Part shown: positions 1 to 20,693 of the stretch, piece by piece
How positions within the stretch are numbered: the stretch's first letter is position 1
Layout of the letters: each line of letters opens with the position of its first letter
IMG/VR virus record: IMGVR_UViG_3300030294_000020
From: an uncultured virus (IMG/VR IMGVR_UViG_3300030294_000020)
Lineage: Duplodnaviria; Heunggongvirae; Uroviricota; Caudoviricetes
Direction: 5' to 3' (one strand)
Length of the DNA stretch: 21,541 nucleotides
The notes under the pieces: model-generated
What the model was told of the DNA's origin: nothing
The model's input: only the letters and a program-made list of their open reading frames with translations
Databases searched by the model: none
Program-made: the position numbers and the translations under genes

Positions 1-1
1 T

Positions 2-169
2 TTAACTTATTGCATACTCCACTAATGATCTAACATAATTATCGGTACTAATATTTCCAAGTTCATGCAATTTGTTCAAACATGCTATTGCATTATTTGT
101 CTCTTCTTCTGTAATTGGATTTTCTTTTTTACCGTTAATCCATATTTCATAGTGTTCATTGTCATTCAT
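2..169 (-). CDS. Hypothetical 55-aa cassette protein, paralog of 447..692 (not in ORF track)
   Basis: Hand translation: MNDNEHYEIWINGKKENPITEEETNNAIACLNKLHELGNISTDNYVRSLVEYAIS*. SD GAAAGAGG and the promoter motif at 185-211 lie upstream. Confidence 0.8.
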   Translation of the reverse strand: MNDNEHYEIWINGKKENPITEEETNNAIACLNKLHELGNISTDNYVRSLVEYAIS

Positions 170-184
170 TATAATTAACCCTCT

Positions 185-211
185 TTCATTATAGGAGGTG
201 TTTTTAGTGCG
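185..211 (-). promoter_or_regulatory. Representative copy of the repeated 27-bp promoter-like motif (19 copies in 185-5611)
   Basis: Minus strand reads CGCAC-TAAAAACA-CCTCC-TATAAT-GAA. Every copy keeps the same spacing and lies directly upstream of an SD/ATG (or the ncRNA unit). There is no conserved TTGACA. Confidence 0.8.
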
Positions 212-227
212 TACTTAGAATCTTAGA

Positions 228-258
228 AGACAAAGAAAAAGCCTAAGCTAATTCCTCT
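228..258 (-). terminator. Representative copy of the repeated intrinsic terminator (class A, 16 copies)
   Basis: RNA: purine-rich arm-AGC[UUAG]GCUUUUUCUUUGUCU, a short stem with a 4-nt loop then a U-rich tail, at the 3' end of each ORF. Compensatory changes are seen in the copies at about 972-1000, 3727-3746 and 3970-4000. Confidence 0.75.
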
Positions 259-383
259 GATTGTGATGCCTTTATCAAATAATCTTGTTCTTCGTTAAAG
301 CATGATAATGAACAATGATTCAGTTCTGTATTTTCTGATTCAAATTCTTTACCACACCAAGTACAAATATTTTTATATTTCAT
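243..383 (-). CDS. 46-aa putative zinc-binding (CxxC-x13-CxxxC) protein (not in ORF track)
   Basis: MKYKNICTWCGKEFESENTELNHCSLSCFNEEQDYLIKASQSEELA*. SD AAGGAG; the stop TAG sits in the terminator loop. Confidence 0.8.
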   Translation of the reverse strand: MKYKNICTWCGKEFESENTELNHCSLSCFNEEQDYLIKASQSEELA

Positions 384-446
384 AATAATCTCCTTCTTTC
401 ATTATAGGGAGTGTTTTAAATACGAGACAAAGAAAAAGCCTAAGCT

Positions 447-692
447 TTAACTTTTTAAGTCTTCAATTGTTAATTTAAATCCTGAATCATTAAGTATTTT
501 ACATAATAATTGTGTATAGTTTTCTTTAGTAACCTCTCCTATTGCATATAGTTCTTTTAAACATTCTACTGAATTTGCATTTCTTGCAATTACATTAGCA
601 TTATTTAAATGTCTATCTATCTCAATAAGTGACCTTGCTCCTTTAATCCATAACTCATCATGTAAACCATTAGTTAATTTTTCATCGTACAT
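447..692 (-). CDS. Hypothetical 81-aa cassette protein
   Basis: ORF track; SD AAGGAG; flanked by the promoter motif and terminator; similar to 2..169. Confidence 0.85.
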   Translation of the reverse strand: MYDEKLTNGLHDELWIKGARSLIEIDRHLNNANVIARNANSVECLKELYAIGEVTKENYTQLLCKILNDSGFKLTIEDLKS

Positions 693-757
693 AATAATCT
701 CCTTCTTTCATTATAGGAGATGTTTTCTACGCGATTAAGACAAAGAAAAAGCCTAAG

Positions 758-898
758 CTAATTCCATAAAGTTCCATTTATTTTTTGCATCATTAATTCT
801 GATTGTTGTTCCTTTGTAAGTTTATTCCATAATCTATCACGATTTCTTGCGTGTAGTATTTTTCTATAACTTTTCATTGTATTTATCAATTTTCTCAT
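758..898 (-). CDS. Hypothetical basic 46-aa cassette protein (start revised to MRKLIN)
   Basis: SD AGGAGTG lies just upstream of ATG 898. The track start at 958 is upstream of the promoter motif. Confidence 0.75.
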   Translation of the reverse strand: MRKLINTMKSYRKILHARNRDRLWNKLTKEQQSELMMQKINGTLWN

Positions 899-998
899 AA
901 TAATCACTCCTAATAATTTTATTTCATTAAAGAGTGTGTTTTCTACGCGTACTACCATTTTGAATCGTTTAGGACAAAAAGAAAGCCTAAGCTCTCTT

Positions 999-1256
999 CT
1001 ATAGTAATGTTCTAAATCCTTCGTAATTCATCTCTTCAAATTTATGCTTTTCTTTAAAGTAATCAAACCTCTCACCCGTTCCTTTACAACATAAGACATA
1101 TATCGGTTGTATCTTAAATCCATCTGAACTTTTGATTATATCTGACTCTCTCAAATCATATATCTCAAAGCCTTCTTTCTTAAGTAAATCTTTAATACTT
1201 ACTGCTGCTTCTTCTGTATGGTTAGTTATAACCCTAAATTTCATTTTTTCAAACAT
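999..1256 (-). CDS. Hypothetical 85-aa cassette protein
   Basis: ORF track; SD AGGAGG; cassette context. Confidence 0.85.
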   Translation of the reverse strand: MFEKMKFRVITNHTEEAAVSIKDLLKKEGFEIYDLRESDIIKSSDGFKIQPIYVLCCKGTGERFDYFKEKHKFEEMNYEGFRTLL

Positions 1257-1343
1257 ATTAATTCCTCCTATAATAAAACATTATTTTCATTATAGTATGT
1301 GTTTTTAATGCGTACTTAGAATTTTATAAGACAAAGAAAAAGC

Positions 1344-1601
1344 CTAAGCTTCTTCCTCTTTAATAATTTCAGATTTCTTATTGTTCTTTAAAAATGCCTT
1401 TGCAGACGTTTCTAACTCTAGTTTTCCACTACGAGCAATCTCGACAATGATATCAATTTCATTTTCATCTAAGTCTAATGATTTTAACCATTCGTTAAAT
1501 TCACTATACCCAAACCTCCAATTAATTTTACCATTCATTCTTACCCAACTCATAATATATCTAGATGCATGTGTACCTCTAATAATTACATTTTCAAACA
1601 T
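1344..1601 (-). CDS. Hypothetical 85-aa cassette protein ending ...EEEA
   Basis: ORF track; SD AGGAGGT; stop in terminator loop. Confidence 0.85.
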   Translation of the reverse strand: MFENVIIRGTHASRYIMSWVRMNGKINWRFGYSEFNEWLKSLDLDENEIDIIVEIARSGKLELETSAKAFLKNNKKSEIIKEEEA

Positions 1602-1682
1602 AATAATACCTCCTAATTTTTTATTTCATTATAAGGTATGTTTTATACGCGTACTTAGAAGCTTATAAGACAAAGAAAAAGC

Positions 1683-2015
1683 CTAAGCCCTTTCTATAAT
1701 TGTAAATCCTTCATCTAAGGCATCTTGTTTTGAATAACCGTCTGCTAAAGCATCTGAATAGATAGCACAATACGTATCATCCGCAAATACTGGTAATCCA
1801 TTGTTGTACATTAAATTCTCGTTATTACATTTTTGCTTCCACTCCTTAGCCCATTCTGGTAGAACTTCAATGTTTGTTACATCATGAATTTCTACTTTTT
1901 CTGGCTTTAAAATGCTAGCAATAATTATACCTCCGACAATCAAACCACCTGCAATAATTTCCAATCTACGTTTTACGTAAAATTCTTTTATTTTCTGCTT
2001 TGTTTCAATTTTCAT
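1683..2015 (-). CDS. 110-aa protein with N-terminal membrane anchor
   Basis: Basic N-terminus then hydrophobic IIAGGLIVGGIIIASIL; SD AAGGA; cassette context. Confidence 0.85.
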   Translation of the reverse strand: MKIETKQKIKEFYVKRRLEIIAGGLIVGGIIIASILKPEKVEIHDVTNIEVLPEWAKEWKQKCNNENLMYNNGLPVFADDTYCAIYSDALADGYSKQDALDEGFTIIERA

Positions 2016-2101
2016 AATAATTTCCTTCTTTCAAATTTATTCTTCTATTATATAGTATGTTATTTATGCGTACTTAGAATCTTTTAAGACAAAGAAAAAG
2101 C

Positions 2102-2272
2102 CTAAGCTCTTTTCTTTTTATAATTATCTATAACTTTTTGTAGTTTATTACTAAATTTAACACATCCTTTTCTACCGCTAATTACATATATCATTGATAA
2201 TACAATACTTGTTAGTACGTATCCAATGTTGTATGTAATTTTATCGATTAGATTAGAAACATTATTATTCAT
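2102..2272 (-). CDS. 56-aa single-TM membrane protein (not in ORF track)
   Basis: MNNNVSNLIDKITYNIGYVLTSIVLSMIYVISGRKGCVKFSNKLQKVIDNYKKKRA*. SD AGGAGG; stop in terminator loop. Confidence 0.8.
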   Translation of the reverse strand: MNNNVSNLIDKITYNIGYVLTSIVLSMIYVISGRKGCVKFSNKLQKVIDNYKKKRA

Positions 2273-2362
2273 AATAATTCCTCCTAAAATTTTATTTAAT
2301 TCTTCTATTATATGAAGTGTTTTTAACGCGTACTTAGAATTTTAGAAGACAAAAGAAAAAGC

Positions 2363-2692
2363 CTAAGCTTCCTCTATGCCATTCAATTTTCGTATAGTAT
2401 CAAATTCCATTCCACTATCTTTCATCTCTTGCATATAAGATTCTGTGCATAATTCTTTCCATAAAATATCTCCATTTTCTGGATCTATAAAATGCATTTC
2501 AAGGCCTTTTTCCGAATCAAAATCAGTTCCTGGATTTGAAATCATTCCAGTAGCATCTTTATCAATACTTTGTTTATTAGCAATAATTGTTGTTATAACA
2601 ACCACCGTTAATATTCCCGTACTGGCAATAATAATACTTTTCTTCTCTTTCATCCATTTTTTAATTTTATCGGTCTTATCTTTAATACTCAT
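2363..2692 (-). CDS. 109-aa protein with N-terminal membrane anchor
   Basis: Basic N-terminus then IIIASTGILTVVVITTIIA; acidic C-terminal part ending IEEA; leader identical to that of 1683..2015. Confidence 0.85.
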   Translation of the reverse strand: MSIKDKTDKIKKWMKEKKSIIIASTGILTVVVITTIIANKQSIDKDATGMISNPGTDFDSEKGLEMHFIDPENGDILWKELCTESYMQEMKDSGMEFDTIRKLNGIEEA

Positions 2693-2802
2693 TTATATTC
2701 CTTCTTTCAAATTTATTCTTCTATTATATAGTATGTTATTTATGCGATTTATAGAACAAAAGAAAAAGCCTAAGCTCTTTCCTTAATAATTTGTTAAAGT
2801 TA

Positions 2803-3021
2803 TTAGCCTAATAAATGTTTAATACTTGACTCATTGATTTGCATAATCTCACCAATTTCAGCATTTGACAATCCTTTTCCCTTTAGCTCTTTTGCTTTCT
2901 TATAAAGTTCCTTCCTCAAATCTTCTTTATCTTTAGCATTTTTAGCTCTTAATTCTAGTACTGTCATACCTACTCTTTTAGCGATTTCTTTCTCACTTAC
3001 GTCACTCTTAAACCTAATCAT
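2803..3021 (-). CDS. 72-aa helix-turn-helix DNA-binding protein (two HTH-like segments)
   Basis: SEKEIAKRVGMTVLELR and GLSNAEIGEIMQINESSIKHLL both fit HTH patterns; SD GAAAGAGG. Confidence 0.75.
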   Translation of the reverse strand: MIRFKSDVSEKEIAKRVGMTVLELRAKNAKDKEDLRKELYKKAKELKGKGLSNAEIGEIMQINESSIKHLLG

Positions 3022-3094
3022 TAATAAAACCCTCTTTCAAATTTATTTCATTAAAGGGTGTGTTTTATGTGCGAATAAAAGACAAAGAAAAAGC

Positions 3095-3406
3095 CTAAGC
3101 TTTATCCTCTTTAATTTTCTTGGATTTATTTTTTATAATTATATGCCTTAAATAACTCCCAATACAAACAAGTCCTAATGTTATACCACTAACTAATAAT
3201 ATTTCCTTTCGTGCTTCAACTGCTCCTGCATTAACAAAATAACTAAGTCTATAATCAAGATTTTTATTCAAATCTTCCCTATTGTCGTCTGTTACATTAT
3301 CACTGCATAACATGTCTAAAGCATCAAATAATAAATATGTTCGTTCGTGTTTTCCATCAATTTCTTCCTGCCTAATATTTTTTATTACTCTATCTGCTGT
3401 ATTCAT
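3095..3406 (-). CDS. 103-aa protein with C-terminal TM segment
   Basis: ILLVSGITLGLVCIGSYL followed by a basic tail; SD AAGGAGG; stop in terminator loop. Confidence 0.85.
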   Translation of the reverse strand: MNTADRVIKNIRQEEIDGKHERTYLLFDALDMLCSDNVTDDNREDLNKNLDYRLSYFVNAGAVEARKEILLVSGITLGLVCIGSYLRHIIIKNKSKKIKEDKA

Positions 3407-3504
3407 AATAATTCCTCCTTAAAATTTATTTCATTAAAGGGTGTGTTTTTTATGCGTACTACCATTTTGAATCTTTTGAGACAAAAGAAAAAGCCTAAGC
3501 TTCT

Positions 3505-3681
3505 TCATTCAAAGTCGTCATCCATTATTATAATATCCTCAATAGCCTCATCATTAGAATGCAAATCAAGTTCGTCTAAAAATCTTTGAACAATCATAAG
3601 TTCATCGTCCGTAAAATTTTCAGTAGGCCAACTAAATCCTTCTCTATTATATCTTGCTGTTACATAAAATATTTTCTTCAT
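3505..3681 (-). CDS. 58-aa highly acidic protein (start revised to MKKIFY)
   Basis: SD GAAGGAG upstream of ATG 3681; 16 of 58 residues are D/E. The track start at 3762 crosses a terminator and the promoter motif. Confidence 0.8.
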   Translation of the reverse strand: MKKIFYVTARYNREGFSWPTENFTDDELMIVQRFLDELDLHSNDEAIEDIIIMDDDFE

Positions 3682-3758
3682 AATTAACATCTCCTTCATT
3701 ATAGAGGGTGTTATATACGCGACAAAAAGAAAGCCTAGGCTTTCTTCTATAAAGTTTC

Positions 3759-3914
3759 TCAATTTTGTTGGACTTCTTTAATTCTTTTAACTAAACTTGT
3801 GAATCCTAGCATTGGCACTTTAGATAATATTATTGCTCCTTCAATTACGATAGGTGCAACGGATATTACTATAGCTACTCCCACTAAGTTGTTCAACAAT
3901 GATTTAATTTTCAT
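3759..3914 (-). CDS. 51-aa hydrophobic/membrane peptide (not in ORF track)
   Basis: MKIKSLLNNLVGVAIVISVAPIVIEGAIILSKVPMLGFTSLVKRIKEVQQN*. SD AAGGAG; cassette context. Confidence 0.75.
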   Translation of the reverse strand: MKIKSLLNNLVGVAIVISVAPIVIEGAIILSKVPMLGFTSLVKRIKEVQQN

Positions 3915-3991
3915 AATTAACATCTCCTTAAAATTTTAATTCTTTCATTATAGGGGATGTTTTATATGCGACAAAAGAAAGAGCCTAAGCT

Positions 3992-4252
3992 CTATCCTTT
4001 AAAAGTGTTTGATATTTTGTCAATCTCAATTGAACTATCATTAGATTTAACAGATAACATTGCCATCCCTCTTTTGTAGTATTGTATATTACCCCAACAT
4101 ATAAGTTTATCTAAGAGTTTATAAACGCCTTTTTTATATTTAATTCGTTCATGTGCTCTTTTTAACCTTTCTGCATGTGCAATATACATATCTGCTTTTT
4201 TAAGTTTGTCAATGGTATCTTGCTTTAAATCTGTATGTTGTTCATCCTTCAT
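3992..4252 (-). CDS. Hypothetical basic 86-aa cassette protein (start revised to MKDEQH)
   Basis: SD AAGGGGTG upstream of ATG 4252. The track start overlaps the promoter motif. Confidence 0.75.
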   Translation of the reverse strand: MKDEQHTDLKQDTIDKLKKADMYIAHAERLKRAHERIKYKKGVYKLLDKLICWGNIQYYKRGMAMLSVKSNDSSIEIDKISNTFKG

Positions 4253-4299
4253 TTCCCCAATCACCCCTTTCAATATATACTGTGTTTATTACGCGATAT

Positions 4300-4338
4300 G
4301 GAGAAAAAGAAAAGGACATGTATTTAAACACGTCCTTT
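4300..4338 (-). terminator. Intrinsic terminator, class B
   Basis: AAAGGACGUGU-loop-ACAUGUCCUUUUCUUUUUCUCC; the stop of 4324..4626 is in the loop. The tail matches those at about 5504 and 5614. Confidence 0.8.
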
Positions 4339-4626
4339 GATGATGAAGCCCAATGCTTTAGAACCAAGTACATGTGCATGTTCAAATCCCACTATCAATA
4401 AAATTCCAGCTAAACTACCTGCAATCTGCCATTTTGTATCAGCACTAGCTTTAGTTGTATCCTTTTCTTTGGATTTCCCCTCTTTTAGTTCTGTTATATT
4501 TTGGTTTATGCCATCGTATTTTGCCTTTTCTTCTATTGGATCTAGTGTCGATAATATTTCATGCAACCTCTCAATTTCCTTATCTGCAAGACTTCTTTTA
4601 TCTTTTGGTATCCATATTTTTTTCAT
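4324..4626 (-). CDS. 100-aa phage membrane protein (C-terminal hydrophobic segment)
   Basis: WQIAGSLAGILLIVGFEHAHVLGSKALGFII; SD AAAGGAG. Confidence 0.85.
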   Translation of the reverse strand: MKKIWIPKDKRSLADKEIERLHEILSTLDPIEEKAKYDGINQNITELKEGKSKEKDTTKASADTKWQIAGSLAGILLIVGFEHAHVLGSKALGFIIKGRV

Positions 4627-4697
4627 TATCCTTTTCTCCTTTCGAGATTTATCATCTCATTATACAGTGTGTTTCTAACGCGAGATAAAGAAAAAGC

Positions 4698-4875
4698 CTA
4701 AGCTTCCTCTAACATAATACTATCAATAACAGTTTGTATTGCATCTATTAACCCACCTACTTGTGAATCTTTTAACTCAAATAATTCAGGTATCTCTTCT
4801 TCGGTATCTACTAACAGTAGTTTAACTGCTAATTTTTCCATTTAATTTTTCACATATCCTTGAATTTAATTTCAT
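4698..4875 (-). pseudogene. Frameshifted paralog of 5240..5449
   Basis: The SD-led ATG 4875 gives MKLNSRICEKL then a premature stop. Homology continues in another frame from 4841: MEKLAVKLLLVDTEEEIPELFELKDSQVGGLIDAIQTVIDSIMLEEA*. Confidence 0.7.
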
Positions 4876-4957
4876 AATAAAACCTCCTCATAATATTCTT
4901 TCATTATAGAATATGTTTCTAACGCGAATTAGAATTTAAGAAGACAAAAGAAAAAGC

Positions 4958-5167
4958 CTAAGCTTCTTCTATTTTAATTTCTTTTAAAGCATTCATTATT
5001 TTTTGAATCTCTTGTTCATTTACCTCTTTTTCTATATAAGCCTGTCCTAACTTAGTAGATAAATCCTCAATCTGGTTTTTATAACATACGATTGTATGAT
5101 CTGTATCCTTAAGTTTATGACATTCATTATATAAGTCAATTGTTAATCTGAATATTTCTTCATTCAT
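4958..5167 (-). CDS. 69-aa coiled-coil cassette protein (start revised to MNEEIF)
   Basis: SD AAGGAGTG; heptad-like pattern; ends IEEA in terminator. Confidence 0.8.
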   Translation of the reverse strand: MNEEIFRLTIDLYNECHKLKDTDHTIVCYKNQIEDLSTKLGQAYIEKEVNEQEIQKIMNALKEIKIEEA

Positions 5168-5239
5168 AATAATCACTCCTTAAATTTCTTTCATTATATA
5201 GAGTGTTTTGTACGCGTACTAAGAAGTCAAAGAAAAAGC

Positions 5240-5449
5240 CTAAGCTTCTTCTATTCCAACATTACTCCGAATTTCTTTTATTATATCAGCTAGTTCATCT
5301 ATTTGTTTGTCTGACATATTTTGTATACCTGGTATATTAGTAACCTCATAATCCTCAACAGTTAATACTTCAACTGCTAATTTCTCTAGATCATTTTTTA
5401 CCGGATATTTTTTTAATGCTTCTTTGCATTCTTTCGATTCTAATTTCAT
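5240..5449 (-). CDS. 69-aa acidic cassette protein (start revised to MKLESK)
   Basis: SD AAGGAGG upstream of ATG 5449; ends IEEA in terminator. Confidence 0.85.
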   Translation of the reverse strand: MKLESKECKEALKKYPVKNDLEKLAVEVLTVEDYEVTNIPGIQNMSDKQIDELADIIKEIRSNVGIEEA

Positions 5450-5502
5450 AATAAAATCCTCCTTATAATATTCTTTCATTATATAGAATGTTTTTTACGC
5501 GA

Positions 5503-5587
5503 AGGAGAAAAAAGAAACAGTATGTTAATGTCTTTCGACGGATCTGGTTTAGCTTTCACTAATCCTAGCATCCCACTGTTTACTTCT
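5503..5587 (-). ncRNA. Candidate ~80-nt structured small RNA (three-way junction, two GAAA tetraloops)
   Basis: Sits between a promoter motif and a U-tract with no SD-led ORF. Pairings by eye: AGAAG.AAACAGUG/UACUGUUUCUUUU, GGAU..CU..GG..UUAGU[GAAA]GCUAA..CC.AG.AUCC, and GUC[GAAA]GAC. Confidence 0.6.
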
Positions 5588-5611
5588 ATTAAGGGGTATG
5601 TTTTCTACGCG

Positions 5612-5654
5612 AAGGAGAAAAAGAAAGGACATGCTTATCTTTCATCCTTTCTTT
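5612..5654 (-). terminator. Class B hairpin terminator downstream of the lysis module / empty cassette
   Basis: AAAGAAAGGAUG-loop-UGUCCUUUCUUUUUCUCC, a 12-bp stem plus U-tract, about 60 nt after the holin stop. Confidence 0.7.
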
Positions 5655-5712
5655 ATTATAAGAAGTATTTATACGAAACCTTTTAAGATCACCTATCCCT
5701 TCTTTATTCTTA

Positions 5713-6042
5713 TTATTTTAAATTAGCACCATTTTGAATATTTAGAGTAAGAGTTGTTTTATCACTTAAATCACTTAAATCCGTATCAAGTACTAATTTG
5801 TAAATGTCCTTCTTAGGATCACTTGTGTCTATTAAGAACGAACCATCTTTAGTCTTGTTATACTGTGCTGATGAGATTCCTAAGATTATTCCTAGAAATA
5901 TATCTATAGCAGTAATAGTTCCGACAATTTGTTCTCCGTAGGGTAATCCCCATATGCCAGATAAGGCAAAGTATAGAGTACCCATTGCTGGAAAGAAGTA
6001 TTGAGCCATCCATTTGAGCATATCATATAATTTACTTTTCAT
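5713..6042 (-). CDS. Holin, Dp-1-like family, with C-terminal soluble extension (start revised to MKSKLY)
   Basis: LYDMLKWMAQYFFPAMGTLYFALSGIWGLPYGEQIVGTITAIDIFLGIILGISS is a recognisable two-TM Dp-1-type holin pattern; downstream of the endolysin. Confidence 0.8.
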   Translation of the reverse strand: MKSKLYDMLKWMAQYFFPAMGTLYFALSGIWGLPYGEQIVGTITAIDIFLGIILGISSAQYNKTKDGSFLIDTSDPKKDIYKLVLDTDLSDLSDKTTLTLNIQNGANLK

Positions 6043-6043
6043 G

Positions 6044-6496
6044 TTAAACACCCGTACCAGATCCACCAACTCGTGTATTTTGTTCTTTGATTATTTCAGC
6101 TACAGATGATGCTAATTGTTCAGGTGTTACCTTCGCTCCGGCTATATTATTTTCTGATACTAATGTTTGAGCTTTAATTGCTTCGGCCTTAGCTTGTTCT
6201 TTTGCAAAGTCTTTGAGTCTATCAAATATAAATTGTATATGATTTGATATGTCTTTTTCACTAATAAATATTTTAAAAACTCCAGGCATTAAACCATATG
6301 ATATATCTAAGACCTTTTGAAACTTACTATCATTGTTTATTTCTAAGGCTTGCATTGAGGCTATAAGTCCGGGTATATTAGTGTATACCTCTTGCTTATT
6401 CTTGCTGTATAAAGCCCTAAATACGGCTGTTAAAGCCACTATAATGGCTAATAAAAGCCCATAATTATCTGATATAAATTGGTATACATTATTCAT
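6044..6496 (-). CDS. Second holin-like membrane protein (LL-H-like architecture)
   Basis: Single N-terminal TM (GLLLAIIVALTAVFRALY) plus a helical cytoplasmic domain; strong SD AGGAGG; follows the endolysin. Confidence 0.6.
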   Translation of the reverse strand: MNNVYQFISDNYGLLLAIIVALTAVFRALYSKNKQEVYTNIPGLIASMQALEINNDSKFQKVLDISYGLMPGVFKIFISEKDISNHIQFIFDRLKDFAKEQAKAEAIKAQTLVSENNIAGAKVTPEQLASSVAEIIKEQNTRVGGSGTGV

Positions 6497-6534
6497 TTAT
6501 ACATTCCTCCTAATATTCTTTATTTTATTCACTT

Positions 6535-6635
6535 AAACGCATCTGTATAAAAATATCCAGTCTATTCTATAGTATCATAGGCAATTGCTTTGTCTAAGAA
6601 TAGTTGCTGGATCATTTTTTTATATAAGAGCATTT
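6535..6635. other. Long imperfect intergenic inverted repeat (~100-nt stem-loop)
   Basis: Nested arms aaacgc/gcattt, tataaaaa/tttttata, atccag/ctggat and ctattct/agaatag. Confidence 0.7.
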
Positions 6636-6651
6636 ATACCTACATATTTGA

Positions 6652-7554
6652 CTATCTTAATAAAGCAGTCCAAGTATCTGGGCCTACTACTCCATCATCA
6701 TCAAGTCCTACTGCTCTTTGGAATGCTTTAACTGCAGCAAGTGTCTTTGGCCCAAATATTCCTATTTGATCTGAAAGAGCCATTGCTAAACGTCTTTGCA
6801 ACCATAAAGTTATATTACTATTTGATCCAACCCTTAATACTGGGCAAGCTTTAAGTGTTAATGGGCCAAAGAAACCATCTATTTTCAAGGTAGTTTTAGC
6901 TACATAATTAAGAGTTCCTTGTAATGATGCTATTGATTGATTTACTCTTGTTGCTGGTGCAGTAACTACTACAGGTCTTGGCAATGGTGTATTAACCTTA
7001 CCAATAGATGACCCAACAATTCCTTCTGCTATTGCTTTTCCTACAGCTTCATGTCCTACACTTCTATATATTCGAATATCTTCTGTTGCTTCACAAAAGC
7101 ATACTTCTACTAATACTGCTGTTGCAACAGATGCTTTAATATCATGTAGATGTTGTACATTTATACCATCTTTTAACCCACGATTCTTAAAACCTAATGC
7201 TGCTAAATTATTAAGTATTCTTGTTCCTATTTCAACTGCCTTAGGATTATTTGGGTTAAGCCAAATTTCACTACCTATTGCTCCTGCATAAGAATCATAT
7301 GCCTTATTAAAATGTATAGGCACTGATAAATCCACATGAGCATTATTAGCAGTGTTTGTCCCATAATTAAGATCCTCATTTTCACTACAATTACCAGGCG
7401 TAGAATCAATAGTCTCTACACCAGCTCTTTGTAGATAGTTTATTGCCCAAGGATATACTAATCGATCTTCCTTTGTTTCATCAAGTCCACCAACATTAGT
7501 GGCACTAGCTCCTGGGCATTGTGGATTGTGTCCGCCTCTTACTGCTGCTTTCAT
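6652..7554 (-). CDS. Endolysin: N-acetylmuramoyl-L-alanine amidase (Amidase_3) with C-terminal PG_binding_1-type repeats
   Basis: Zn-amidase motifs GGHN, E..EDR, IHFN and LVEVCF; Pro-rich linker; DGFFGPLT, GIFGPKT..AVKAFQ and DGVVGPDTW. Confidence 0.92.
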   Translation of the reverse strand: MKAAVRGGHNPQCPGASATNVGGLDETKEDRLVYPWAINYLQRAGVETIDSTPGNCSENEDLNYGTNTANNAHVDLSVPIHFNKAYDSYAGAIGSEIWLNPNNPKAVEIGTRILNNLAALGFKNRGLKDGINVQHLHDIKASVATAVLVEVCFCEATEDIRIYRSVGHEAVGKAIAEGIVGSSIGKVNTPLPRPVVVTAPATRVNQSIASLQGTLNYVAKTTLKIDGFFGPLTLKACPVLRVGSNSNITLWLQRRLAMALSDQIGIFGPKTLAAVKAFQRAVGLDDDGVVGPDTWTALLR

Positions 7555-8967: not shown

Positions 8968-11900
8968 TTAATATTGTTTCCATGTACCCCATACACCATT
9001 AACTTTTTTCCTTGTGAAGAATATATTTTCAGTATATGAGTCTAATCTTTGTGAGCACCATCCACTAGCATCATGACCTTGAACAAATAAATAAAACCAA
9101 GCATTAGCCCATCCAGCTGGAGCATTTACTAAATTACAACCTCTGAACATCCCTGCAGCAACATAATCGTTTAAATTTGCACCACTTATATCTTTACCAA
9201 CTGCTCCTAGATACATACCATTAATAAAAGTAGCTGTTAAATTCCCAGTAATACTTAAATTTCCAGCTCTTGTATCCATAACGATTCTACAAATATTATC
9301 ATAACTTGTAAACCCAATTCCATACCAAGAGTTAATAGCCATATTATATGCAGTAAAAGTTGCATTATCACCATTTCCACTTAATATCCCACAATAACTA
9401 TAATCACCACCAATTTTAATTCCACCAGAAGCAACTATTGTTCTTGGAACTACAAGAACTCCCTCATTATTTATAGTCAAAGATGGGTCATTTATATTTG
9501 CTGTTCTACCCGCATGAAACATTAATTGCTTTTGCGAATAAATTATTGTTCCAGTATGATTAGAATCGGTAGTACCTGATGATTCATAGTAGTAACCCAT
9601 TGGACTTGAATCTCCATTAAACATATGTCTAACCATAAAACATCGATATGCTATTTCATTCTCTACACCATATCCATATCTATCACCACCAGAATGTAAA
9701 GTTAGATCAAGACCAGAAGGATATATATAAACAATATCAGCTATTCTAGATCCTTGTACAGCACTCTCTGGTATATAGAAATTACCGTACAAACCACCAT
9801 CTAAGGTTAATGTACTATCAGTACTTCCTCCTTGTCCATACCATTGTCCTGTTGAACTCTGTATTTGAATTTTACCTATCATGATAGCTAATCCATCTTT
9901 AGTTATACTTCCAATAATATTGCCATTAGCATCATTCATAGTTAATGCACCGCTTATATTATCAGCACCACCTAGTACAAGTGTTCCACCTTTAATGTTT
10001 CCACCATTGATAGTAACACTTCCTGCAACGCCAATGGCTGTTATGGTAACATAACCATTTAATGTTAGTTTATCAGCTTTTAAGTCTATATCTTGGGCTG
10101 TCTGTGCAATATAAGAATTATATGTCGTAGATGATACTTTACCATTAACTGTAGTATTCGTAGCATATGTAGATGAAACGGTGCTTAGTATGCCACTAGC
10201 ACTAATAGAGATTGCAGAGTTCATTGCAGTTGTTGTTGAATAATTATTTGTTATATTAGTTGTAACAGCACTTACTGCATTTGTTATATTAGTAGCTGTT
10301 ACTGTACTAGTTGAATAATTAGTTGTTAGATTCGATGCTACAGCAGTTGCCGCATCTAATGCAGTCTTAGCATCAGTCACACCTTTATTTGCTTGTGCTT
10401 GTGCCGTAGCTGCATCTGTAACACCCTTAGTAGCTTGAGTCTGAGCTGTTGCTGCATCTGTAACACCCTTAGTAGCTTGAGTCTGAGCTGTTGCTGCGTT
10501 ACTTGTAGCTGTATTAGCCTGAATCTGAGCTGTAGATGCATTAGCAACTCCTAAGTTAGCCTGAATCTGAGCGTTTGCAGCGTTAGTCGTAGCTGTATTA
10601 GCTTTAGTCTGAGCTGTTGCTGCGTCGCTAGTAGCTGTATTAGCCTGAGTCTGAGCTGTTGCGGCGTTATTTAAAGCTGTTGTAGCATTGGTAACTCCTA
10701 ATTCAGCTCTTTCCTTAGCTGTAGAGGCAATTAAATTAAGTAAGTCAGTTCTAGCATTGTAATAAGTAGTCCATTTTGAATCCCATGTAGATCTAACAAT
10801 ATCTGAAGTAATTGTAGTCATAGAAGAAAATACGGTTAGTGTGGTATTCAAATAAGTATTCAAATCATTATATGCTGTGTCAAATATATTATGATCGACA
10901 CCAAATGCAATTGCTTGTGCTGGTATTTTACCAGTTGTTACTGTAGCTTCTGATACTATAAGTGTCCATTGTTGCTTTAAATCAAGTTTCTCATCTGGAG
11001 TTATAACTGAATCCAGAGCCAAATTATCAGTATATGTTTTGGCAATATTAGCTGTTGTTTGGGCTTGTGCTGCTGCAGAAGATGCTATGTCAGCATTAGT
11101 AACTCCTAAGTTAGCTTGGGTCTGAGCAGTCGCTGCGTCTAGTATAGCTTGTGCTGCATTAGTTTGTGCTGTTGCTGCGTCCAACACTCCTTGATCTGCC
11201 TTAGCTTGTGCTGTAGCTGCGTTAGTAACACCTAAGTTGGCTTGGGTCTGAGCTGTTGCTGCATTAGAGATTGCGGCATTAGCTTGGGTCTGAGCTGTTG
11301 CTGCATTAGAGATTGCTGTTGCTGCATTAGAGATTGCTGTTGCTGCATTAGCAACTCCTAAATCAGCTTGAGTCTGAGCTGCACTAGCATCAGATAAACT
11401 TTGATCTGCTTTAGCTTGTGCTGCTGCTGCATCTGATACTCCTTGACTAGCTTTATTATAAGCTGCTGCCACGGCAGTATTCGTTGCATCTAATTGAGTA
11501 GACGTTGCACTTAATTTTATAGCCTGAGTGTTAGCTGCAATATTTGTAGTCTGGGTCCCAACAATAGTGTTTATATCATTTACTAATGTTGTAATTGACC
11601 TAAATTCTACGTCTAATGTGTTAGTGGTCATTTGTATTTTGGAACTATTGATTGTAATAGAACCATTAGCATTTATCATTGATATTACTTTACTTATATC
11701 AATCTTTTTAGGATCTAATGAGGCATCTACAAGTTTACCATAACCATCTGTAAATCCTTCTTTTGTTTGACCTTTTTCATCATATAAGAGTGTAACCCCA
11801 TCATCACCTCTTATTCTTATACCGATAACTGACCCATCAAAATTAACATCACCAATAGATATTCGTTCAAATAATGTTACTCCATCAGCCATTGTATCAA

Positions 11901-14027: not shown

Positions 14028-17000
14028 GTAGCATCACTCCTTTCCACTTTCTTCTGGAGAATATTAGCAACTTCAACAGCAACCTGTTTAGGATCAGTGC
14101 TTTTGATATTAAATACATTATTGTTGCCTACTCCAGCAATAGGGGCATCATTAGATGATTGAGATGTCTTAGAGTCTACTATAGAATTTGTGCTTGCTTG
14201 AATACTCCTAGAAGTATTATTTGCTAAGTTGACAGACCCTGATATAACAGAACCATCTATACCATTCATCATACTATATAATTGTTTACTACCATTTTGA
14301 ATATTTGATAGATCCATTACAGGTGTAATAGTTGGGTTAGGGTCTATTCCCATGTTAACTATATCTGAGACTCCAGAGATAGCTTTTGACATTGCATTAA
14401 CTGCTCCTTGTCCAAGATTTTTAGCTGAATCTGATACTTTACTTGCATAACTTGTTAGACCTATAACAAATCCTTCACCAGTATATCCACCAATCTTTTT
14501 AAATACTTTAGATGGTGATGCTATTCCTAACATCTTTTTTACACCATCTGGTAATCCAGAAAATACTGATAAAGCCTTTTTCTTTAATTCTCCAGCCATA
14601 CTAGTGATTCCATTTATCATACCTTGTACTACATTTCGACCAAAGTCAGTGAAACCACCAATCATTCCCCCAACTCCATTAATTATTCCTTGTACAACAT
14701 TCCTCCCAGTTTGAGCAACTGATCCAGCCATAGAACTAATACCTCTAATAAGACCATTTATAATGTTAATACCCCAAGAGGCAAAAGTCCCAACAAAACT
14801 GCCGATAGTATTTGCTGCACTAGATACAATGTTCCAGACTGTACCGGATACACTACCGACTAAACTCCAAATACCTCTGATAAGCCCTGTTATGATATTA
14901 ATACCCCAAGAGACAAAAGTCCCAATAAAACTACCAACAGTATTTGCTGCTCCAGATACAATGTTCCAAACTGTACCTGAAACACTGCCAACTAAACTCC
15001 AAATACCTCTAATAAGTCCTGTTATGATATTAACACCACTAGATACAAAGCTACCTATAAAACTACCAACGGCATTAAGTGCTCCATTCGCCATATTCCA
15101 AACGGTTCTAACAACAGTAGCCGATAAGTTAAGAATACCATTGATTAGTCCTTGACAAATAAATTGGCCTATCTCTGCAAAGGCTGTTGAAGGAGAATGT
15201 ATGCCTAAGAAATCTTTAATAGATTTAAGCATTCCTGCACCTAAATCTGCTACTGAAGCAAACAAAGCTGCCATCATACTATCCATACCACTAAGAATAC
15301 CTTTTACAATATTTATACCAACATCTAACAACATATCACTCATACTATTAAGGGCATCAACAATTGCTGTTATTAAGTTAAGACAAGCACTTGTTATAGC
15401 TGGAGTATTGTTTCTAATCGCATCTGCTAATCCATTTACGAATGCTAATATAAAATTCAATGCTGACTCAATTATTCTTGGTAACTGAGCAGCAACAGAA
15501 TCTACAAATGTTATTACAATAGTTACAGCAGCGTCGATTAATTTTGGAATCTGGCCGTTTATGCTATTTAGAAAAGCTAGCATAAACTTTGCAGCTGCTA
15601 GCACAAGTTGTGGCATGTTATTAGTTATTCCATTCATAAAACCTATAACTAATTTCATTCCAGCATCAACCATTGGCAAAATGTATTTGGCTAACTCAAC
15701 TAATAATACTAATAACAACTTTACAGCTGCTTTTACAACTGGATCGATAAGAGCATCGATAACTGCTACTATTCCTGTTGCTATTGCAATAACCGCTCCT
15801 TGTATAGCAGGAATCGCTGCTTCAATCTCTGTGGCTATTGCTATTACTGCAGTACCTATAAGTTTTGCTATCATTGGAATGGTTTTAAGTAGAACAACAA
15901 ATCCTGCAATAAGACCTGCAATAAAGGCACCAAGTGAAACAGTTAAAGCGGCTAATCCAGCAGAGAATAGAATAAGACCTCCTCCTAAAAGAAATGCTCC
16001 TACACCAATAAGTCCGATGGCTGCAGCTAATGTAAATATAATAGGGGCTAATGGAGCTAATACTAATCCGGCCAACCCTAATACTACAAATATTCCAGCT
16101 AAGGCTAATAGAGCAACCCCTATAACTTTGATTGGAAGAAGTCCTAATATAACCATTGCTGGTACTAATACATTAACCGCTATAGCTAATACTAGTAAAG
16201 CTGCTGCTCCTGCTAAAACTCCTGGGTCACTCATTGCTCTGGCTGCTAATGCTAAAATACCTAATGCAACACCTATAGCAATCATACCTTTGGCTAAAAC
16301 TGGTATAGGTATAATAGCATACAAACCAATCGCTCCAGCAAATAATGTTAATGCTACGGACATTAAGGTCATGCCAACACCAACAGCAATCATATGTTCT
16401 GGATTACCAATAACCTTAATGAACACTCCTAGAACCAATAGTGCTGAAACAATACCTTGTATTCCAGCGTCCATAACTTTTGGATCAATTGCACCAAACT
16501 TCTTTACAGCATCACAAAGAATTAATACTGCTAATGCAATACCAACTACTCCTATAATACTTGTTTGTATACCAGCTGCACTAGATGTAAATTTAATAAA
16601 TATTGCAAGAGTTGTTAATATTGCAGCTAACCCTTGCACACCTGTTTTCATTTTCTCATTATCAATTTCACTAAGTTTCTTTACAGCTTCGGCAATAAAC
16701 ATAATTGCTACGCCAAGAGCTATAAGTTTAGTTGGCAATCCTGGAGAGGCAGATGAGGCTTTATCTAATACCATCATGCCTAAAGATAATTCTAAACATA
16801 TTACTGTGAGTGCACTTAAAGCCTTATATAAGGCCTCAGTTGGAATTAATGATAAAGCAACAACTGATAAAGCAAGTATACCTATTGCTATTGCTATTTT
16901 TAATATTGACTCTGCTTTAAGTTTCTTTTGAAATGCTTCAAGTGATCCTGTGACGCCTTCAATTATTTCTGAGAAACCATCAGTTACAGATTTTACTGAG

Positions 17001-19330
17001 CCTATAGCTTTAGTGAATGATTTAGCTAGCATGAATATACCACCACCAGCAAGAGCTATACCTAAATCTGATAATGTTAAACCTTTAATTTTATCAATCA
17101 AGAATGTAATAGCTGGGCCAAATGTTCTTTTTATAGCACCACCAATTTCTTCTAAGACATTCTTAAAACCTTCAATTTTATTTCCTGCACCAGAGAAAGA
17201 TTCTTTTACTTTATCTCCGGTGTTACTTAAAAATACAAATGCTGTACTAAGTTTATCAGATGCTCCTGTAGCTTCATTAAAATTAAGTTTCTGTATACTA
17301 GCTATTAAATTTTTAATACCACCACCAAGATCCATAAACAGCATTTTGATTGTACCTAATACATCTTCAAATAGAGTAGATGTTTGTACAAATGTTTTGA
17401 ATTTATCAATGTATGGTCCTAGGGCATCTTTAATACTATTTACAACATCTTCAAATAGAGTAGATGTTTGTATAAAATGATTTACTGCTTCAATATATGG
17501 TAATAGAGCCATCCAAGCAGCTGTGAATGCATCTTTAACTGAATTTGTTATGTCCTCAATTAAGGTCGAAGTTCTTACAAAGGTCTTTAATTGCTCAATG
17601 TAAGGTATCAAAGCATTTCCGATATTTATAAATACAGATTTAACTTTATCTGTTACATCAGCAATTAAGGTAGATGTTTTTACAAAGTTTTTAAATTGTT
17701 CAATTACTGGTCGTATAACATCTGCTACTGTATTAAAGCCAAGGGCAATTACACTAATAGCTGTTGTTATGATTTTTCTTACAACTCCCATAACTGCACC
17801 GATGCCGGTTAGAGCAATACCAAAGATATTACTTTTCTTAATTGCATTGTCAATCATTGCTAAGAAATAACCAAATCCACCTGTTACGGCATAGACTCCA
17901 TCTGTTACTGGAAGGAATGCTCCTACAACTAAGAATAGAGCTTTTGCAATGAATGTTATGATTTGTACACCAATATCTAATACTGCAAATAAACCTTTAA
18001 ATGTGTTATGTATATTTTCAAGACCAGATTTACTCATAGTAAGACTTGACACAAAGCTTTTTAATCCAGTTGTAATATTAAATAACTGTTTGGATGTAGT
18101 TGCAGGAAATACCTCTCTAAATGCAGAACTAACTGCTTTAACAACATCCATTACATTCGTAAATGCTATTCTAATTGCATCTATTAACGCAGTACGTCCA
18201 CCTAAGGCTTTCCATCCAGTAAGCATTGTATTACGAGCAGTAGCTGAAGCACCTATAATTCCACCAAGAGTATTACTTACACTTGTAAATAACATTTTGG
18301 CTTCATCAAAGTCACCTACTATAGTACCCCAAGTTTGAGCCCAACCAGATCCAACTGCTTCTCTTAAAGTATCTAATAACTGGCTAAATGTTTTAACTTT
18401 AGTAGCTGCTTCATATGCTGTCTGACCCATTTTCATTATAGATACAACTTGTTTATCACTATATCCAAGAGCTTTAAGTTGTTGAGCACTTAGATCACCT
18501 GTGAATTTACTTAGAGTTTCAGTTAATACACTAGTTGTCAACCAACCAGTTTTTAATGTTTCTCTAAAAGAACCTTCTTTTTTTATCATAGCATCAATAT
18601 TGACACCATGAACTTTTGCTGTTTCTTGTAGTGATTTTTGAAATATTTCACCACCCATACCAGCATTAACAACAGAGTTCCAATCCATAAGCTTTACCGT
18701 ACCAGAAGCCATTGCTTGTGATAACTGATACATTGCTGTAGATGCTTGTTCTGAATTAGAACCTGATACAGCTGCTAAATTAGCAATACCTTTAATTGCT
18801 GCTACAGAGGTCTTTAGATCAACTCCAGCTGCTGTAAAAGTACCAATATTTTTAGTCATTTCAGTAAAATTATAAATAGTTTTATCAGAATATGTATTTA
18901 ACTCACCTAATGCTGCATTTACATCTTTAAGTGTTGTACCTTTAGAAGAAGTGTTCGCTAGTACTGTTTGTATAGCGCCCATCTGAGTTTCATATTCCTT
19001 AAAACCATCCATTACTGGGTCAAGGGTTAATGATGAAATAAGATTCTTTCCAGCATTCATAGCAGAGTTTGTGATATTTAAAAGTGCTCCAACAGCTATA
19101 ACTTGTAATGCTGAGAATTTTACTTTTATAGCATCTACACCACTAGCTAATCCATCCATAGAAATATTTTTTGCTGCTGCACCAACACCTTCTAAACCCT
19201 TAGATGCACCTTCTAAATTTAGACCTTTTTTCAAACGATCAAGAGTGCTCATGGTAACTGCAGTCCCTGACTCAAATTGTTTGTTATCAAATTTCATTGA
19301 GACTACTCGTTCATCAATTTCTGTACTCAT
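14018..19330 (-). CDS. Tail tape measure protein (1770 aa)
   Basis: Length; tape-measure domain (ELNTYSDKTIYNF, YQLSQA, LMDWNSVVNAGMGG); hydrophobic Ala/Gly-rich middle; W/F-spaced repeats; GIHSPS/GIASPS motifs. Confidence 0.95.
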   Translation of the reverse strand: MSTEIDERVVSMKFDNKQFESGTAVTMSTLDRLKKGLNLEGASKGLEGVGAAAKNISMDGLASGVDAIKVKFSALQVIAVGALLNITNSAMNAGKNLISSLTLDPVMDGFKEYETQMGAIQTVLANTSSKGTTLKDVNAALGELNTYSDKTIYNFTEMTKNIGTFTAAGVDLKTSVAAIKGIANLAAVSGSNSEQASTAMYQLSQAMASGTVKLMDWNSVVNAGMGGEIFQKSLQETAKVHGVNIDAMIKKEGSFRETLKTGWLTTSVLTETLSKFTGDLSAQQLKALGYSDKQVVSIMKMGQTAYEAATKVKTFSQLLDTLREAVGSGWAQTWGTIVGDFDEAKMLFTSVSNTLGGIIGASATARNTMLTGWKALGGRTALIDAIRIAFTNVMDVVKAVSSAFREVFPATTSKQLFNITTGLKSFVSSLTMSKSGLENIHNTFKGLFAVLDIGVQIITFIAKALFLVVGAFLPVTDGVYAVTGGFGYFLAMIDNAIKKSNIFGIALTGIGAVMGVVRKIITTAISVIALGFNTVADVIRPVIEQFKNFVKTSTLIADVTDKVKSVFINIGNALIPYIEQLKTFVRTSTLIEDITNSVKDAFTAAWMALLPYIEAVNHFIQTSTLFEDVVNSIKDALGPYIDKFKTFVQTSTLFEDVLGTIKMLFMDLGGGIKNLIASIQKLNFNEATGASDKLSTAFVFLSNTGDKVKESFSGAGNKIEGFKNVLEEIGGAIKRTFGPAITFLIDKIKGLTLSDLGIALAGGGIFMLAKSFTKAIGSVKSVTDGFSEIIEGVTGSLEAFQKKLKAESILKIAIAIGILALSVVALSLIPTEALYKALSALTVICLELSLGMMVLDKASSASPGLPTKLIALGVAIMFIAEAVKKLSEIDNEKMKTGVQGLAAILTTLAIFIKFTSSAAGIQTSIIGVVGIALAVLILCDAVKKFGAIDPKVMDAGIQGIVSALLVLGVFIKVIGNPEHMIAVGVGMTLMSVALTLFAGAIGLYAIIPIPVLAKGMIAIGVALGILALAARAMSDPGVLAGAAALLVLAIAVNVLVPAMVILGLLPIKVIGVALLALAGIFVVLGLAGLVLAPLAPIIFTLAAAIGLIGVGAFLLGGGLILFSAGLAALTVSLGAFIAGLIAGFVVLLKTIPMIAKLIGTAVIAIATEIEAAIPAIQGAVIAIATGIVAVIDALIDPVVKAAVKLLLVLLVELAKYILPMVDAGMKLVIGFMNGITNNMPQLVLAAAKFMLAFLNSINGQIPKLIDAAVTIVITFVDSVAAQLPRIIESALNFILAFVNGLADAIRNNTPAITSACLNLITAIVDALNSMSDMLLDVGINIVKGILSGMDSMMAALFASVADLGAGMLKSIKDFLGIHSPSTAFAEIGQFICQGLINGILNLSATVVRTVWNMANGALNAVGSFIGSFVSSGVNIITGLIRGIWSLVGSVSGTVWNIVSGAANTVGSFIGTFVSWGINIITGLIRGIWSLVGSVSGTVWNIVSSAANTIGSFVGTFASWGINIINGLIRGISSMAGSVAQTGRNVVQGIINGVGGMIGGFTDFGRNVVQGMINGITSMAGELKKKALSVFSGLPDGVKKMLGIASPSKVFKKIGGYTGEGFVIGLTSYASKVSDSAKNLGQGAVNAMSKAISGVSDIVNMGIDPNPTITPVMDLSNIQNGSKQLYSMMNGIDGSVISGSVNLANNTSRSIQASTNSIVDSKTSQSSNDAPIAGVGNNNVFNIKSTDPKQVAVEVANILQKKVERSDATWA

Positions 19331-20274: not shown

Positions 20275-20673
20275 TTATTTTAAATTAATTTTTTCAGCAT
20301 TGGCTCTTCTTTCCAAAAATGAAGCATATATTAACATACTACTTAATTGGCCTTTTAATATACTATAACTACAAGTTGGTTTAAAAGAAAGAGTTCCTGT
20401 TTTATACTTTTGTAACATTGCTTTAAGCCCGTTTGCTCTAATCTTTACTTGAAAATATTCAGCTTTGAATCGTTCTGCATAATCTGAACTAACCATCATA
20501 TCATAGGTATCCTTTAATTGTTTTGGATTTGATATAGGATCAGTTGATTGCATAGACTCAACTGTTGGTTCAGTGTTATCTACTACTTTTGGCTCTTCTG
20601 TTGATTCTGGGGTATCTATTAGAACACCTTTTGGCTCTTCTGTTGATTCCACATTAATTTTTGGTTCTTTCAT
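20275..20673 (-). CDS. 132-aa protein: low-complexity ESTEEPK N-terminus plus conserved phage domain (crAss001_48-like, from memory)
   Basis: SD GAAAGGTGG; 22-nt direct repeat at 20586-20607 and 20628-20649; MMVSSDYAERFKAEY..L.F.PTC..L..Q...M..Y motif. Confidence 0.7.
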   Translation of the reverse strand: MKEPKINVESTEEPKGVLIDTPESTEEPKVVDNTEPTVESMQSTDPISNPKQLKDTYDMMVSSDYAERFKAEYFQVKIRANGLKAMLQKYKTGTLSFKPTCSYSILKGQLSSMLIYASFLERRANAEKINLK

Positions 20674-20693
20674 TGTATTGCCACCTTTCTAAT

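Follow-up and report, generated by a model that had tools for sequence, protein, structure and literature searches.

Integron cassette arrays are tandem rows of single-gene units with unrelated cargo. A working precedent in phages is provided by the promoter/stem-loop (PeSL) cassettes of T4-type phages, for which the available text describes ORFans of a variable region separated by composite terminator-promoter junctions (PMC2839356, PMC4122927) and proposes shuffling by short-homology recombination (PMC2839356). Smaller sets of repeats are known from actinophages: in the accessible parts of the reports a 32-bp repeat at genes 37-41 of Giantsbane is linked to deletions and translocations (10.1101/2020.01.10.891226) and a repeat of Mossy to rearrangement (PMC11008172), and a 50-bp TATAAT motif of Vardy was called a sigma-70 -10 (PMC9671010). 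Here we describe an array of single-gene units in an uncultured caudoviricete phage (IMG/VR record IMGVR_UViG_3300030294_000020). The stretch analysed (the window, 21,541 nucleotides) spans positions 62001-83541 of the phage genome G000, a single contig of 83.5 kb, and makes up its final 21.5 kb. The best explanation of the array, which we consider likely, is that the accessory-gene region of this 1706/Oengus/BI-AU-DJ-type siphophage is a tandem row of predicted transcription units with one cargo each; whole units would be gained, lost and reordered among relatives through short-homology recombination between terminator-promoter junctions, and the phage's own two-barrel RNA polymerase would read the repeated promoter.

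The array is marked by a 27-bp motif on the minus strand with the consensus CGCGTA-N-AAACA-N5-TATAAT-GAA (core CGC-N7-ACA-N5-TATAAT-GA). G000 contains 58 copies, 50 of them within genome 52.0-67.7 kb and 19 within positions 1-5680 of the window (to which coordinates refer unless the genome or another locus is named). None lies among the structural genes of G000. No match occurs on its plus strand or in five mononucleotide shuffles of the genome, which excludes chance. The 19 copies in the window precede one RNA-only unit, one decayed unit and 17 intact open reading frames (ORFs) of 46-110 amino acids (aa) whose leaders are Shine-Dalgarno-like (Table 1). At 16 of the 18 internal junctions of the window a hairpin AAGC-TTAG-GCTT with a T-run, a predicted terminator, stands upstream of the next motif; the other two have a different hairpin and the closing stem of the RNA unit itself. 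The common upstream motif and the conserved hairpin claimed in the initial annotation are thus borne out. The extent given there is real for positions 1-5680, but the array is larger and continues to the left of the window. About 50 mini-genes and small RNAs follow one another, nearly all between a predicted promoter and a predicted terminator, the single interruption being a 2-kb multi-gene stretch that includes nucleotide-metabolism genes. Unrelated cargo proteins have common C-termini such as EEA because 23 of the 44 array ORFs (genome 52-67.6 kb) stop at the TAG within the terminator loop, and 20 of the 44 proteins contain a 19-residue hydrophobic stretch. Moreover, the promoter plus leader of the units starting at 2746 and 2070 is identical over 49 bp. 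An RNA-only unit, a decayed unit and non-adjacent paralogs had also been reported and were all recovered: the first is an ORF-less structured RNA, the second has its promoter at 4926 and a frame led by a ribosome-binding site (RBS) that stops after 17 codons, and the paralogs form eight pairs at E<0.01. The 47-aa remainder of the decayed unit is paralogous to ORF 5240-5449 (37% identity). The reported 'empty unit', if positions 5680-5612 were meant, has a TATAAT and no scoring motif, and is more simply read as the terminator of the lysis genes.

Relatives differ in the content and order of their units. A metagenome scan returned 66 stretches carrying the same terminator. Relative L097 starts with the same RNA unit and has 10 of its 22 units in common with G000, in an order that differs by one swapped adjacent pair and one moved unit; L067 and L103 have still other orders, and two RNAs that G000 has under one promoter (genome 55998) occur in L103 and in L105/L082 as separate units. 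Since the relatives of G000 are too distant for base-level mapping, breakpoints were mapped in all close locus pairs (identity of at least 90% across 600 or more aligned bp), counting clean indels of at least 80 bp and excluding replacements and shorter indels. The 61 raw clean indels represent 26 distinct segments, or 25 once two like groups were merged. Ten of these 25 lie in promoter-dense zones, and both ends fall at junctions in nine of the ten, against 7% expected. Eight of the nine junction-to-junction indels have a net length that agrees to about 4 nt with the distance from repeat to repeat. The empty sites are hybrid junctions, with the left junction upstream and the right junction downstream. 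The crossover falls within the terminator in L054/L053, at the CGC end (between -8 and +5) in L018/L034, and near the -10 (after +14) in L021/L045 and L053/L054. The crossover intervals of different events do not overlap, although later point changes may blur them. The earlier proposal that modular units are gained, lost and reordered at terminator-promoter junctions is therefore supported: relatives do not carry the same genes in the same order, and the breakpoints are linked to the junctions.

With regard to the enzymes involved, neither an integrase, a resolvase nor a reverse transcriptase (RT) was found in Pfam (38 proteins) or PHROGs (71 and 44 proteins), in scans that covered the array proteins, the proteins of 75 aa or more elsewhere and the DNA polymerase in part, and tblastn with the FP_oengus integrase gave no match. 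The search of the rest of the genome that had been recommended thus yielded an RNA polymerase, and no recombinase or RT among the scanned proteins. A single-strand-annealing protein (phrog_4787) is encoded at genome 17264-17779, in addition to an exonuclease and a helicase, and pairs of array junctions have up to 49 identical bp in common, 254 of the 1225 pairs sharing at least 20. The scattered in-register crossovers together with the annealing protein point to short-homology recombination. It is very likely that this is carried out by the general annealing/exonuclease system of the phage, or by that of the host, without a site-specific enzyme.

The motif is widespread in the phage lineage. 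Its exact pattern was found in viral contigs (27-55% GC) at 45 loci, and almost every one of these has several copies on the same strand. A profile built anew from 567 distinct sites matched 780 kb 791 times in the sense and 0 times in the antisense orientation; the strict terminator-plus-promoter pattern had no match in viral contigs, and a holin query returned three distant loci, all without the motif. Conservation of CGC and ACA, which lie one helical turn apart, is 93-100% over hosts of two phyla (Bacillota and Actinomycetota), and the motif is present in cultured phages of Gordonia, Arthrobacter, Streptomyces, Rhodococcus and Faecalibacterium. In the stretches scanned the profile matched 8 times in Vardy, 10 in FP_oengus, 10 in Gordon, 16 in Pepy6, 12 in DrGrey, 9 in 6 kb of Giantsbane and 31 in 50 kb of Arthrobacter phage Qui. 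All 10 copies of FP_oengus have YYTTAT in place of TATAAT; Lactococcus P162 has no profile match and contains the ACA-N5-TATAAT-GA core without CGC. Six of the Giantsbane matches flank genes 37-41 and those of Vardy lie within genes 37-55, so that the AU/DJ 'boundary' repeat and the G000 motif appear to be the same, judged by position and not by the published logos. Both belong to the same supercluster and occupy the same place after the tail and lysis genes. The published cases have 5-6 copies whereas G000 has 58, with the 50 of the array in one 15.6-kb stretch; given the Giantsbane, Vardy and Mossy repeats, a precedent of about one tenth the size thus exists in its own lineage, and the G000 array is an AU/DJ boundary-repeat array of large size. 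The shuffling-repeat trait is family-wide and had already been published in small form for supercluster phages, which the initial annotation missed, as it did the RNA polymerase encoded by the genome. In their available text, the papers on these repeats neither follow the motif from one cluster or phylum to another nor connect it with a phage polymerase or with RNA-only units.

The PeSL cassettes, proposed earlier as the closest precedent, serve well as a working one, since terminator-promoter junctions and whole-gene indels are alike in both. As far as the PeSL descriptions go, a terminator stem-loop (predicted in G000, at the 16 window junctions mentioned) and a promoter lie between ORFans in both systems, and the relatives of G000 have whole-gene indels with crossovers inside the element (the nine of ten above) and a variable crossover point. 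PeSL elements have consensus sigma-70 -35 and -10 boxes, whereas the G000 motif has a -10, a -35 at the random level and the phage-specific CGC/ACA; they are carried by T4-type myoviruses, whereas G000 is a siphophage of another lineage with its own polymerase; and mini-circles have been demonstrated for them, whereas the G000 array is known from assembled contigs, in which no circles were seen. Contig joints were considered as evidence of excised circles and rejected, their sides being short (21-39 nt) and accounted for by letters that junctions have in common or by relatives that co-occur. The array works like PeSL cassettes but, with no -35 and outside T4-type phages, does not belong among them. 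With integrons it shares tandem single-gene units of unrelated cargo; however, every unit in G000 carries a predicted promoter and terminator of its own, IntI was not found, no crossover is fixed and the junction hairpin is a short terminator. The array is not an integron.

A 980-aa putative two-barrel RNA polymerase (phrog_4291) is encoded at genome 10562-13504. Its catalytic DFDGD lies at 514, with D514-D518 invariant in 104 sequences, and it is 45% identical to FP_oengus AUV56548 and about 50% to the Poco6 homolog, that of P162 being the most distant of those compared (36%). The protein matched 250 phage records, mostly from supercluster groups, and had at least 8000 matches at E≤1e-50 (8000 of 8000 scored candidates). 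Its sequence had no match in PDB. A structure model (predicted local distance difference test, pLDDT, 82.6; predicted template modelling score, pTM, 0.70) gave QDE-1 and the Thermus-phage polymerases P74 gp62 and P32 gp64 as its best structural matches (best E 9e-8), and the protein is accordingly predicted to have a single-chain two-barrel RNA polymerase fold. A putative polymerase of the supercluster is noted in the accessible text of 10.1101/842583. The two-barrel polymerases of P23-45 (gp64/gp96) are described as reading repeated phage-specific motifs (PMC10770324, in part), and share with the G000 enzyme the DFDGD, the two-barrel fold and repeated phage-specific candidate promoters; YonO is listed as a further single-chain two-barrel phage RNA polymerase (PMC5467207). 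The G000 family differs from both in having helix-turn-helix (HTH) domains at both ends. In the literature searched no mapped promoter or activity assay was found for this family, nor any report that connects motif and polymerase, in a search that reached a minority of subscription journals and covered text without figures and supplements. A motif copy stands upstream of the polymerase operon in G000, Gordon, FP_oengus, Pepy6, Poco6 and DrGrey. The homologs of the Rhodococcus phages Pepy6 and Poco6 carry GenBank notes of similarity to 'Lactococcus phage 1706_gp75, structural protein', on which the structural label of this family rests. It is reasonably probable that the phage polymerase, possibly virion-borne, reads the motif early in infection. 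FP_oengus (L113, YYTTAT) and P162 (L115, without CGC) form a natural set for motif-polymerase co-variation. Regarding neighbouring genes, an SLT transglycosylase gene heads the polymerase operon (L001 14334-15032, minus strand) and in P162 a cell-wall hydrolase gene adjoins the polymerase gene.

Several observations weigh against the explanation given above. None of the nine mapped indels lies in the array of G000 itself and three come from a single gut clade; the G000 strain is unchanged across four runs, most matching contigs being identical; and the density of clean indels inside arrays (10 in 47.8 kb) is only about double that found elsewhere (15 in 160.8 kb). Selection alone would concentrate breakpoints at junctions, as these are the only intergenic DNA of the array, and the near-identical contigs L085 and L093 have non-unit deletions of 40 bp (genome 52856-52895) and 32 bp (58461-58492), respectively. 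On the side of transcription, TATAAT is the host sigma-70 -10 box and is perfect in 47 of the 58 copies, the polymerase gene itself has a motif copy upstream, which would be expected of a cascade set off by the host enzyme, and the TM-scores of the model to solved polymerases are low (0.22-0.28 by query). Among the 44 cargo proteins, only the HTH protein passed the Pfam cut-off. L093 is also short of about 15 bp elsewhere, and these micro-deletions of L085 and L093 are either real or assembly artefacts. The constancy of same-strain contigs across samples, and indels that also outside arrays fall mostly at gene boundaries, would suit a static co-regulated set, in which the repeats are a shared regulator only and breakpoints at junctions reflect selection against broken genes. 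Such a set is hardly probable and already largely refuted, since unit content and order differ among relatives and the empty sites are in-register hybrids of the flanking junctions, which illegitimate breaks are not expected to leave. The unit-precise indels and the very uniform ends (the 23 stops at the loop TAG) could instead suggest a dedicated site-specific or retro-type system that excises and inserts cassettes at the junction as integrons do, and the genes of unrecognised family could include its enzyme. We regard this as very improbable: no integrase, recombinase or RT family appeared in the scans described, the FP_oengus integrase found no counterpart, crossover intervals do not overlap between events and the changes of order are not polarised towards one end. 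The suggestion of a dedicated recombinase is thus not supported.

In the same recombination-prone array the motif could also serve the host RNA polymerase as an early promoter, perhaps with the help of an activator of the phage bound at CGC/ACA in the manner of T4 MotA; the phage polymerase, itself produced from one such promoter, would then transcribe late genes as YonO does. This would account for the perfect TATAAT boxes, for the motif copy in front of the polymerase operon in the six phages named and for the lack of copies among structural genes. Nevertheless, -35 boxes are not enriched in the G000 copies (9 of 58 reach 4/6 matches and none more; random 14%), and the trinucleotides CTC and CCC precede the -10 most often, in place of the extended-10 TG. 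Moreover, -11A, which is near-essential for sigma-70, is missing in 9 of the 58 G000 copies and in all 10 of FP_oengus, one motif serves hosts of two phyla, and a polymerase homolog is annotated as structural. We therefore hold transcription by the host enzyme to be possible but unlikely. As for the phage polymerase as reader of the motif, an extended version, a plug-in platform for expression, is doubtful: a virion-borne polymerase would read one promoter independently of the host across two phyla, units would be transferred by the annealing protein as pieces joined at the junction, and the HTH cassette would be a feedback repressor. Any mini-gene or structured RNA captured between two junctions would then be expressed at once, because the virion-borne enzyme would read one conserved promoter.

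The strongest PHROG matches of the cargo are phrog_5818 (ORF 4324-4626, the cargo family most frequently common to G000 and relatives), phrog_4291 and phrog_8761. PADLOC, which covers defence and not anti-defence genes, matched 0 of 17 proteins, and atlas searches with two cargo proteins named no family. ORF 2803-3021 encodes a stand-alone protein homologous to the polymerase's N-terminal HTH region (39% over 69 aa, E 2e-7); it matches phrog_4291 positions 48-114 (E 7e-11) and Pfam Sigma70_r4_2. It is kept in L097 and L104, and a search for homologs gave only itself and one near-identical copy. Tentatively, this cassette may dampen the motif by competing for it, as a candidate competitor of the polymerase. 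The size, position and turnover of the cargo make a role in host takeover or counter-defence plausible, and there is perhaps an even chance that the cargo proteins are early effectors of host takeover, counter-defence or host range.

For the RNA unit at 5611-5502 a fold of three helices is predicted, with a stem and U-run closing it (z -3.0; -5.8 for the copy in L097, its one homolog found, which has it at the same place). The two RNAs differ by one compensatory and one wobble change, a covariation that does not reach significance with two sequences (269 of 500 shuffles). When other loci were filtered for short units lacking a clear ORF, 31 came up, some of which are probably overlooked small ORFs. 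Twelve score as tRNA-like, though only at a relaxed threshold that also yields 37 matches in G000, so that this score is weak evidence by itself; Vardy, L055 and L096 have the clearest cloverleaves, and the Pepy6 array contains an annotated 'tRNA-OTHER'. ARAGORN at default settings found no tRNA, and Rfam at gathering scores found nothing in G000 and none in L004 500-6100; a folP match in Rfam was rejected as being at chance level (E 0.92). An unannotated tRNA-shaped RNA lies in a motif-headed unit of Vardy (L112 8552-8625, record ~32550-32625), and RNA-like units follow motif copies also in Gordon, Giantsbane, Qui, FP_oengus and P162. On the minus strand of L004 there are a tRNA-shaped element with an odd anticodon loop, seen by ARAGORN only at the relaxed threshold (2539-2614, genome 52.6 kb), two multi-hairpin RNAs that share one promoter and are separate units in relatives (5763-5971, genome 55.9 kb), and a structured leader (~665-750, genome 50.7 kb).

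G000 has 31% GC and a 127-bp overlap between its termini, and the public runs matching it carry peat metagenome labels. Its TerL is 76-78% identical to the terminases of Streptomyces RosaAsantewaa and Gordonia DJ among the best 50 matches listed (grouped by identity), and a tail-region protein matches phages of Arthrobacter, Gordonia, Streptomyces, Lactococcus and Faecalibacterium. By these similarities, and by the signature HTH-bearing putative RNA polymerase with DxDGD, G000 belongs to the Actinobacteria/Firmicutes phage supercluster (1706, FP_oengus, BI, AM, AU, AW, CC, DJ, EL), which is described in the available text of 10.1101/842583. It is a siphophage of a lineage unrelated to the T4-type myoviruses; a link to Ca. 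Heliusvirales is not established from the accessible part of PMC11283538. A clostridial host is likely, since the best endolysin matches are mostly from Clostridium phages (115 of 160 records); a scan of species genomes returned one short contig, uninformative on host or prophage state. Elsewhere in the window, a tail protein of 1452 aa has 42-bp tandem repeats (10349-11430) and the tape measure gene has repeats of 132, 84 and 105 bp (14738-15133 and 17345-17719). In addition, two non-structural-looking genes (phrog_774 and phrog_918) are inserted between the tail chaperone genes at 20275-20960 on the minus strand.

Table 1. Array units and bounding features in the window, with the unit nearest the lysis genes listed first.
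Feature	Position	Strand	Details
Array, first 19 units, continuing left of the window	1-5611	-	motif profile and ORFs
Dp-1-type holin gene (5713-6069) and amidase endolysin gene (6652-7554), bounding the array upstream	5713-7554	-	Pfam, endolysin matches
Hairpin and T-run after the lysis genes, likely lysis-operon terminator	5612-5660	-	TATAAT upstream, no scoring motif
RNA-only unit	5502-5611	-	motif 5611-5585, then predicted ~77-nt three-helix RNA, closing stem and U-run
Unit	5217-5501	-	motif 5501-5475, ORF 5240-5449 (69 aa), terminator 5246-5229
Unit	4927-5216	-	motif 5216-5190, ORF 4958-5167 (69 aa), terminator 4964-4947
Decayed unit	4683-4926	-	motif 4926-4900, 17-codon RBS-led frame, out-of-frame remainder 4698-4841
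Unit	4296-4682	-	motif 4682-4656, ORF 4324-4626 (100 aa, phrog_5818), non-consensus hairpin
Unit	3971-4295	-	motif 4295-4269, ORF 3992-4252 (86 aa)
Unit	3722-3970	-	motif 3970-3944, ORF 3759-3914 (51 aa, hydrophobic stretch)
Unit	3457-3721	-	motif 3721-3695, ORF 3505-3681 (58 aa)
Unit	3074-3456	-	motif 3456-3430, ORF 3095-3406 (103 aa)
HTH unit	2747-3073	-	motif 3073-3047, ORF 2803-3021 (72 aa)
Unit	2331-2746	-	motif 2746-2720, ORF 2363-2692 (109 aa)
Unit	2071-2330	-	motif 2330-2304, ORF 2102-2272 (56 aa)
Unit	1652-2070	-	motif 2070-2044, ORF 1683-2015 (110 aa); swapped with the 1313-1651 unit in L097
Unit	1313-1651	-	motif 1651-1625, ORF 1344-1601 (85 aa; L097 counterpart 81% identical)
Unit	950-1312	-	motif 1312-1286, ORF 999-1256 (85 aa)
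Unit	734-949	-	motif 949-923, ORF 758-898 (46 aa)
Unit	425-733	-	motif 733-707, ORF 447-692 (81 aa), paralog of ORF 2-169
Unit	212-424	-	motif 424-398, ORF 243-383 (46 aa, CxxC)
Unit	1-211	-	motif 211-185, ORF 2-169 (55 aa), terminator just left of the window

Within the literature searched, the identity of the motif across phyla, its likely link to the polymerase, the mapped hybrid junctions, the RNA-only units and the HTH cassette are new. They supply a candidate promoter for an abundant and apparently unassayed RNA polymerase family, and unite scattered notes on actinophage 'repeats' with gut and peat phages of Bacillota. The cultured members with long arrays, such as Arthrobacter phage Qui, make the claims on the polymerase and on shuffling directly testable. 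Moreover, a single motif marks hundreds of small proteins and RNAs as candidates for host-takeover and counter-defence screens, and the arrangement may help to explain how this lineage crosses host phyla.

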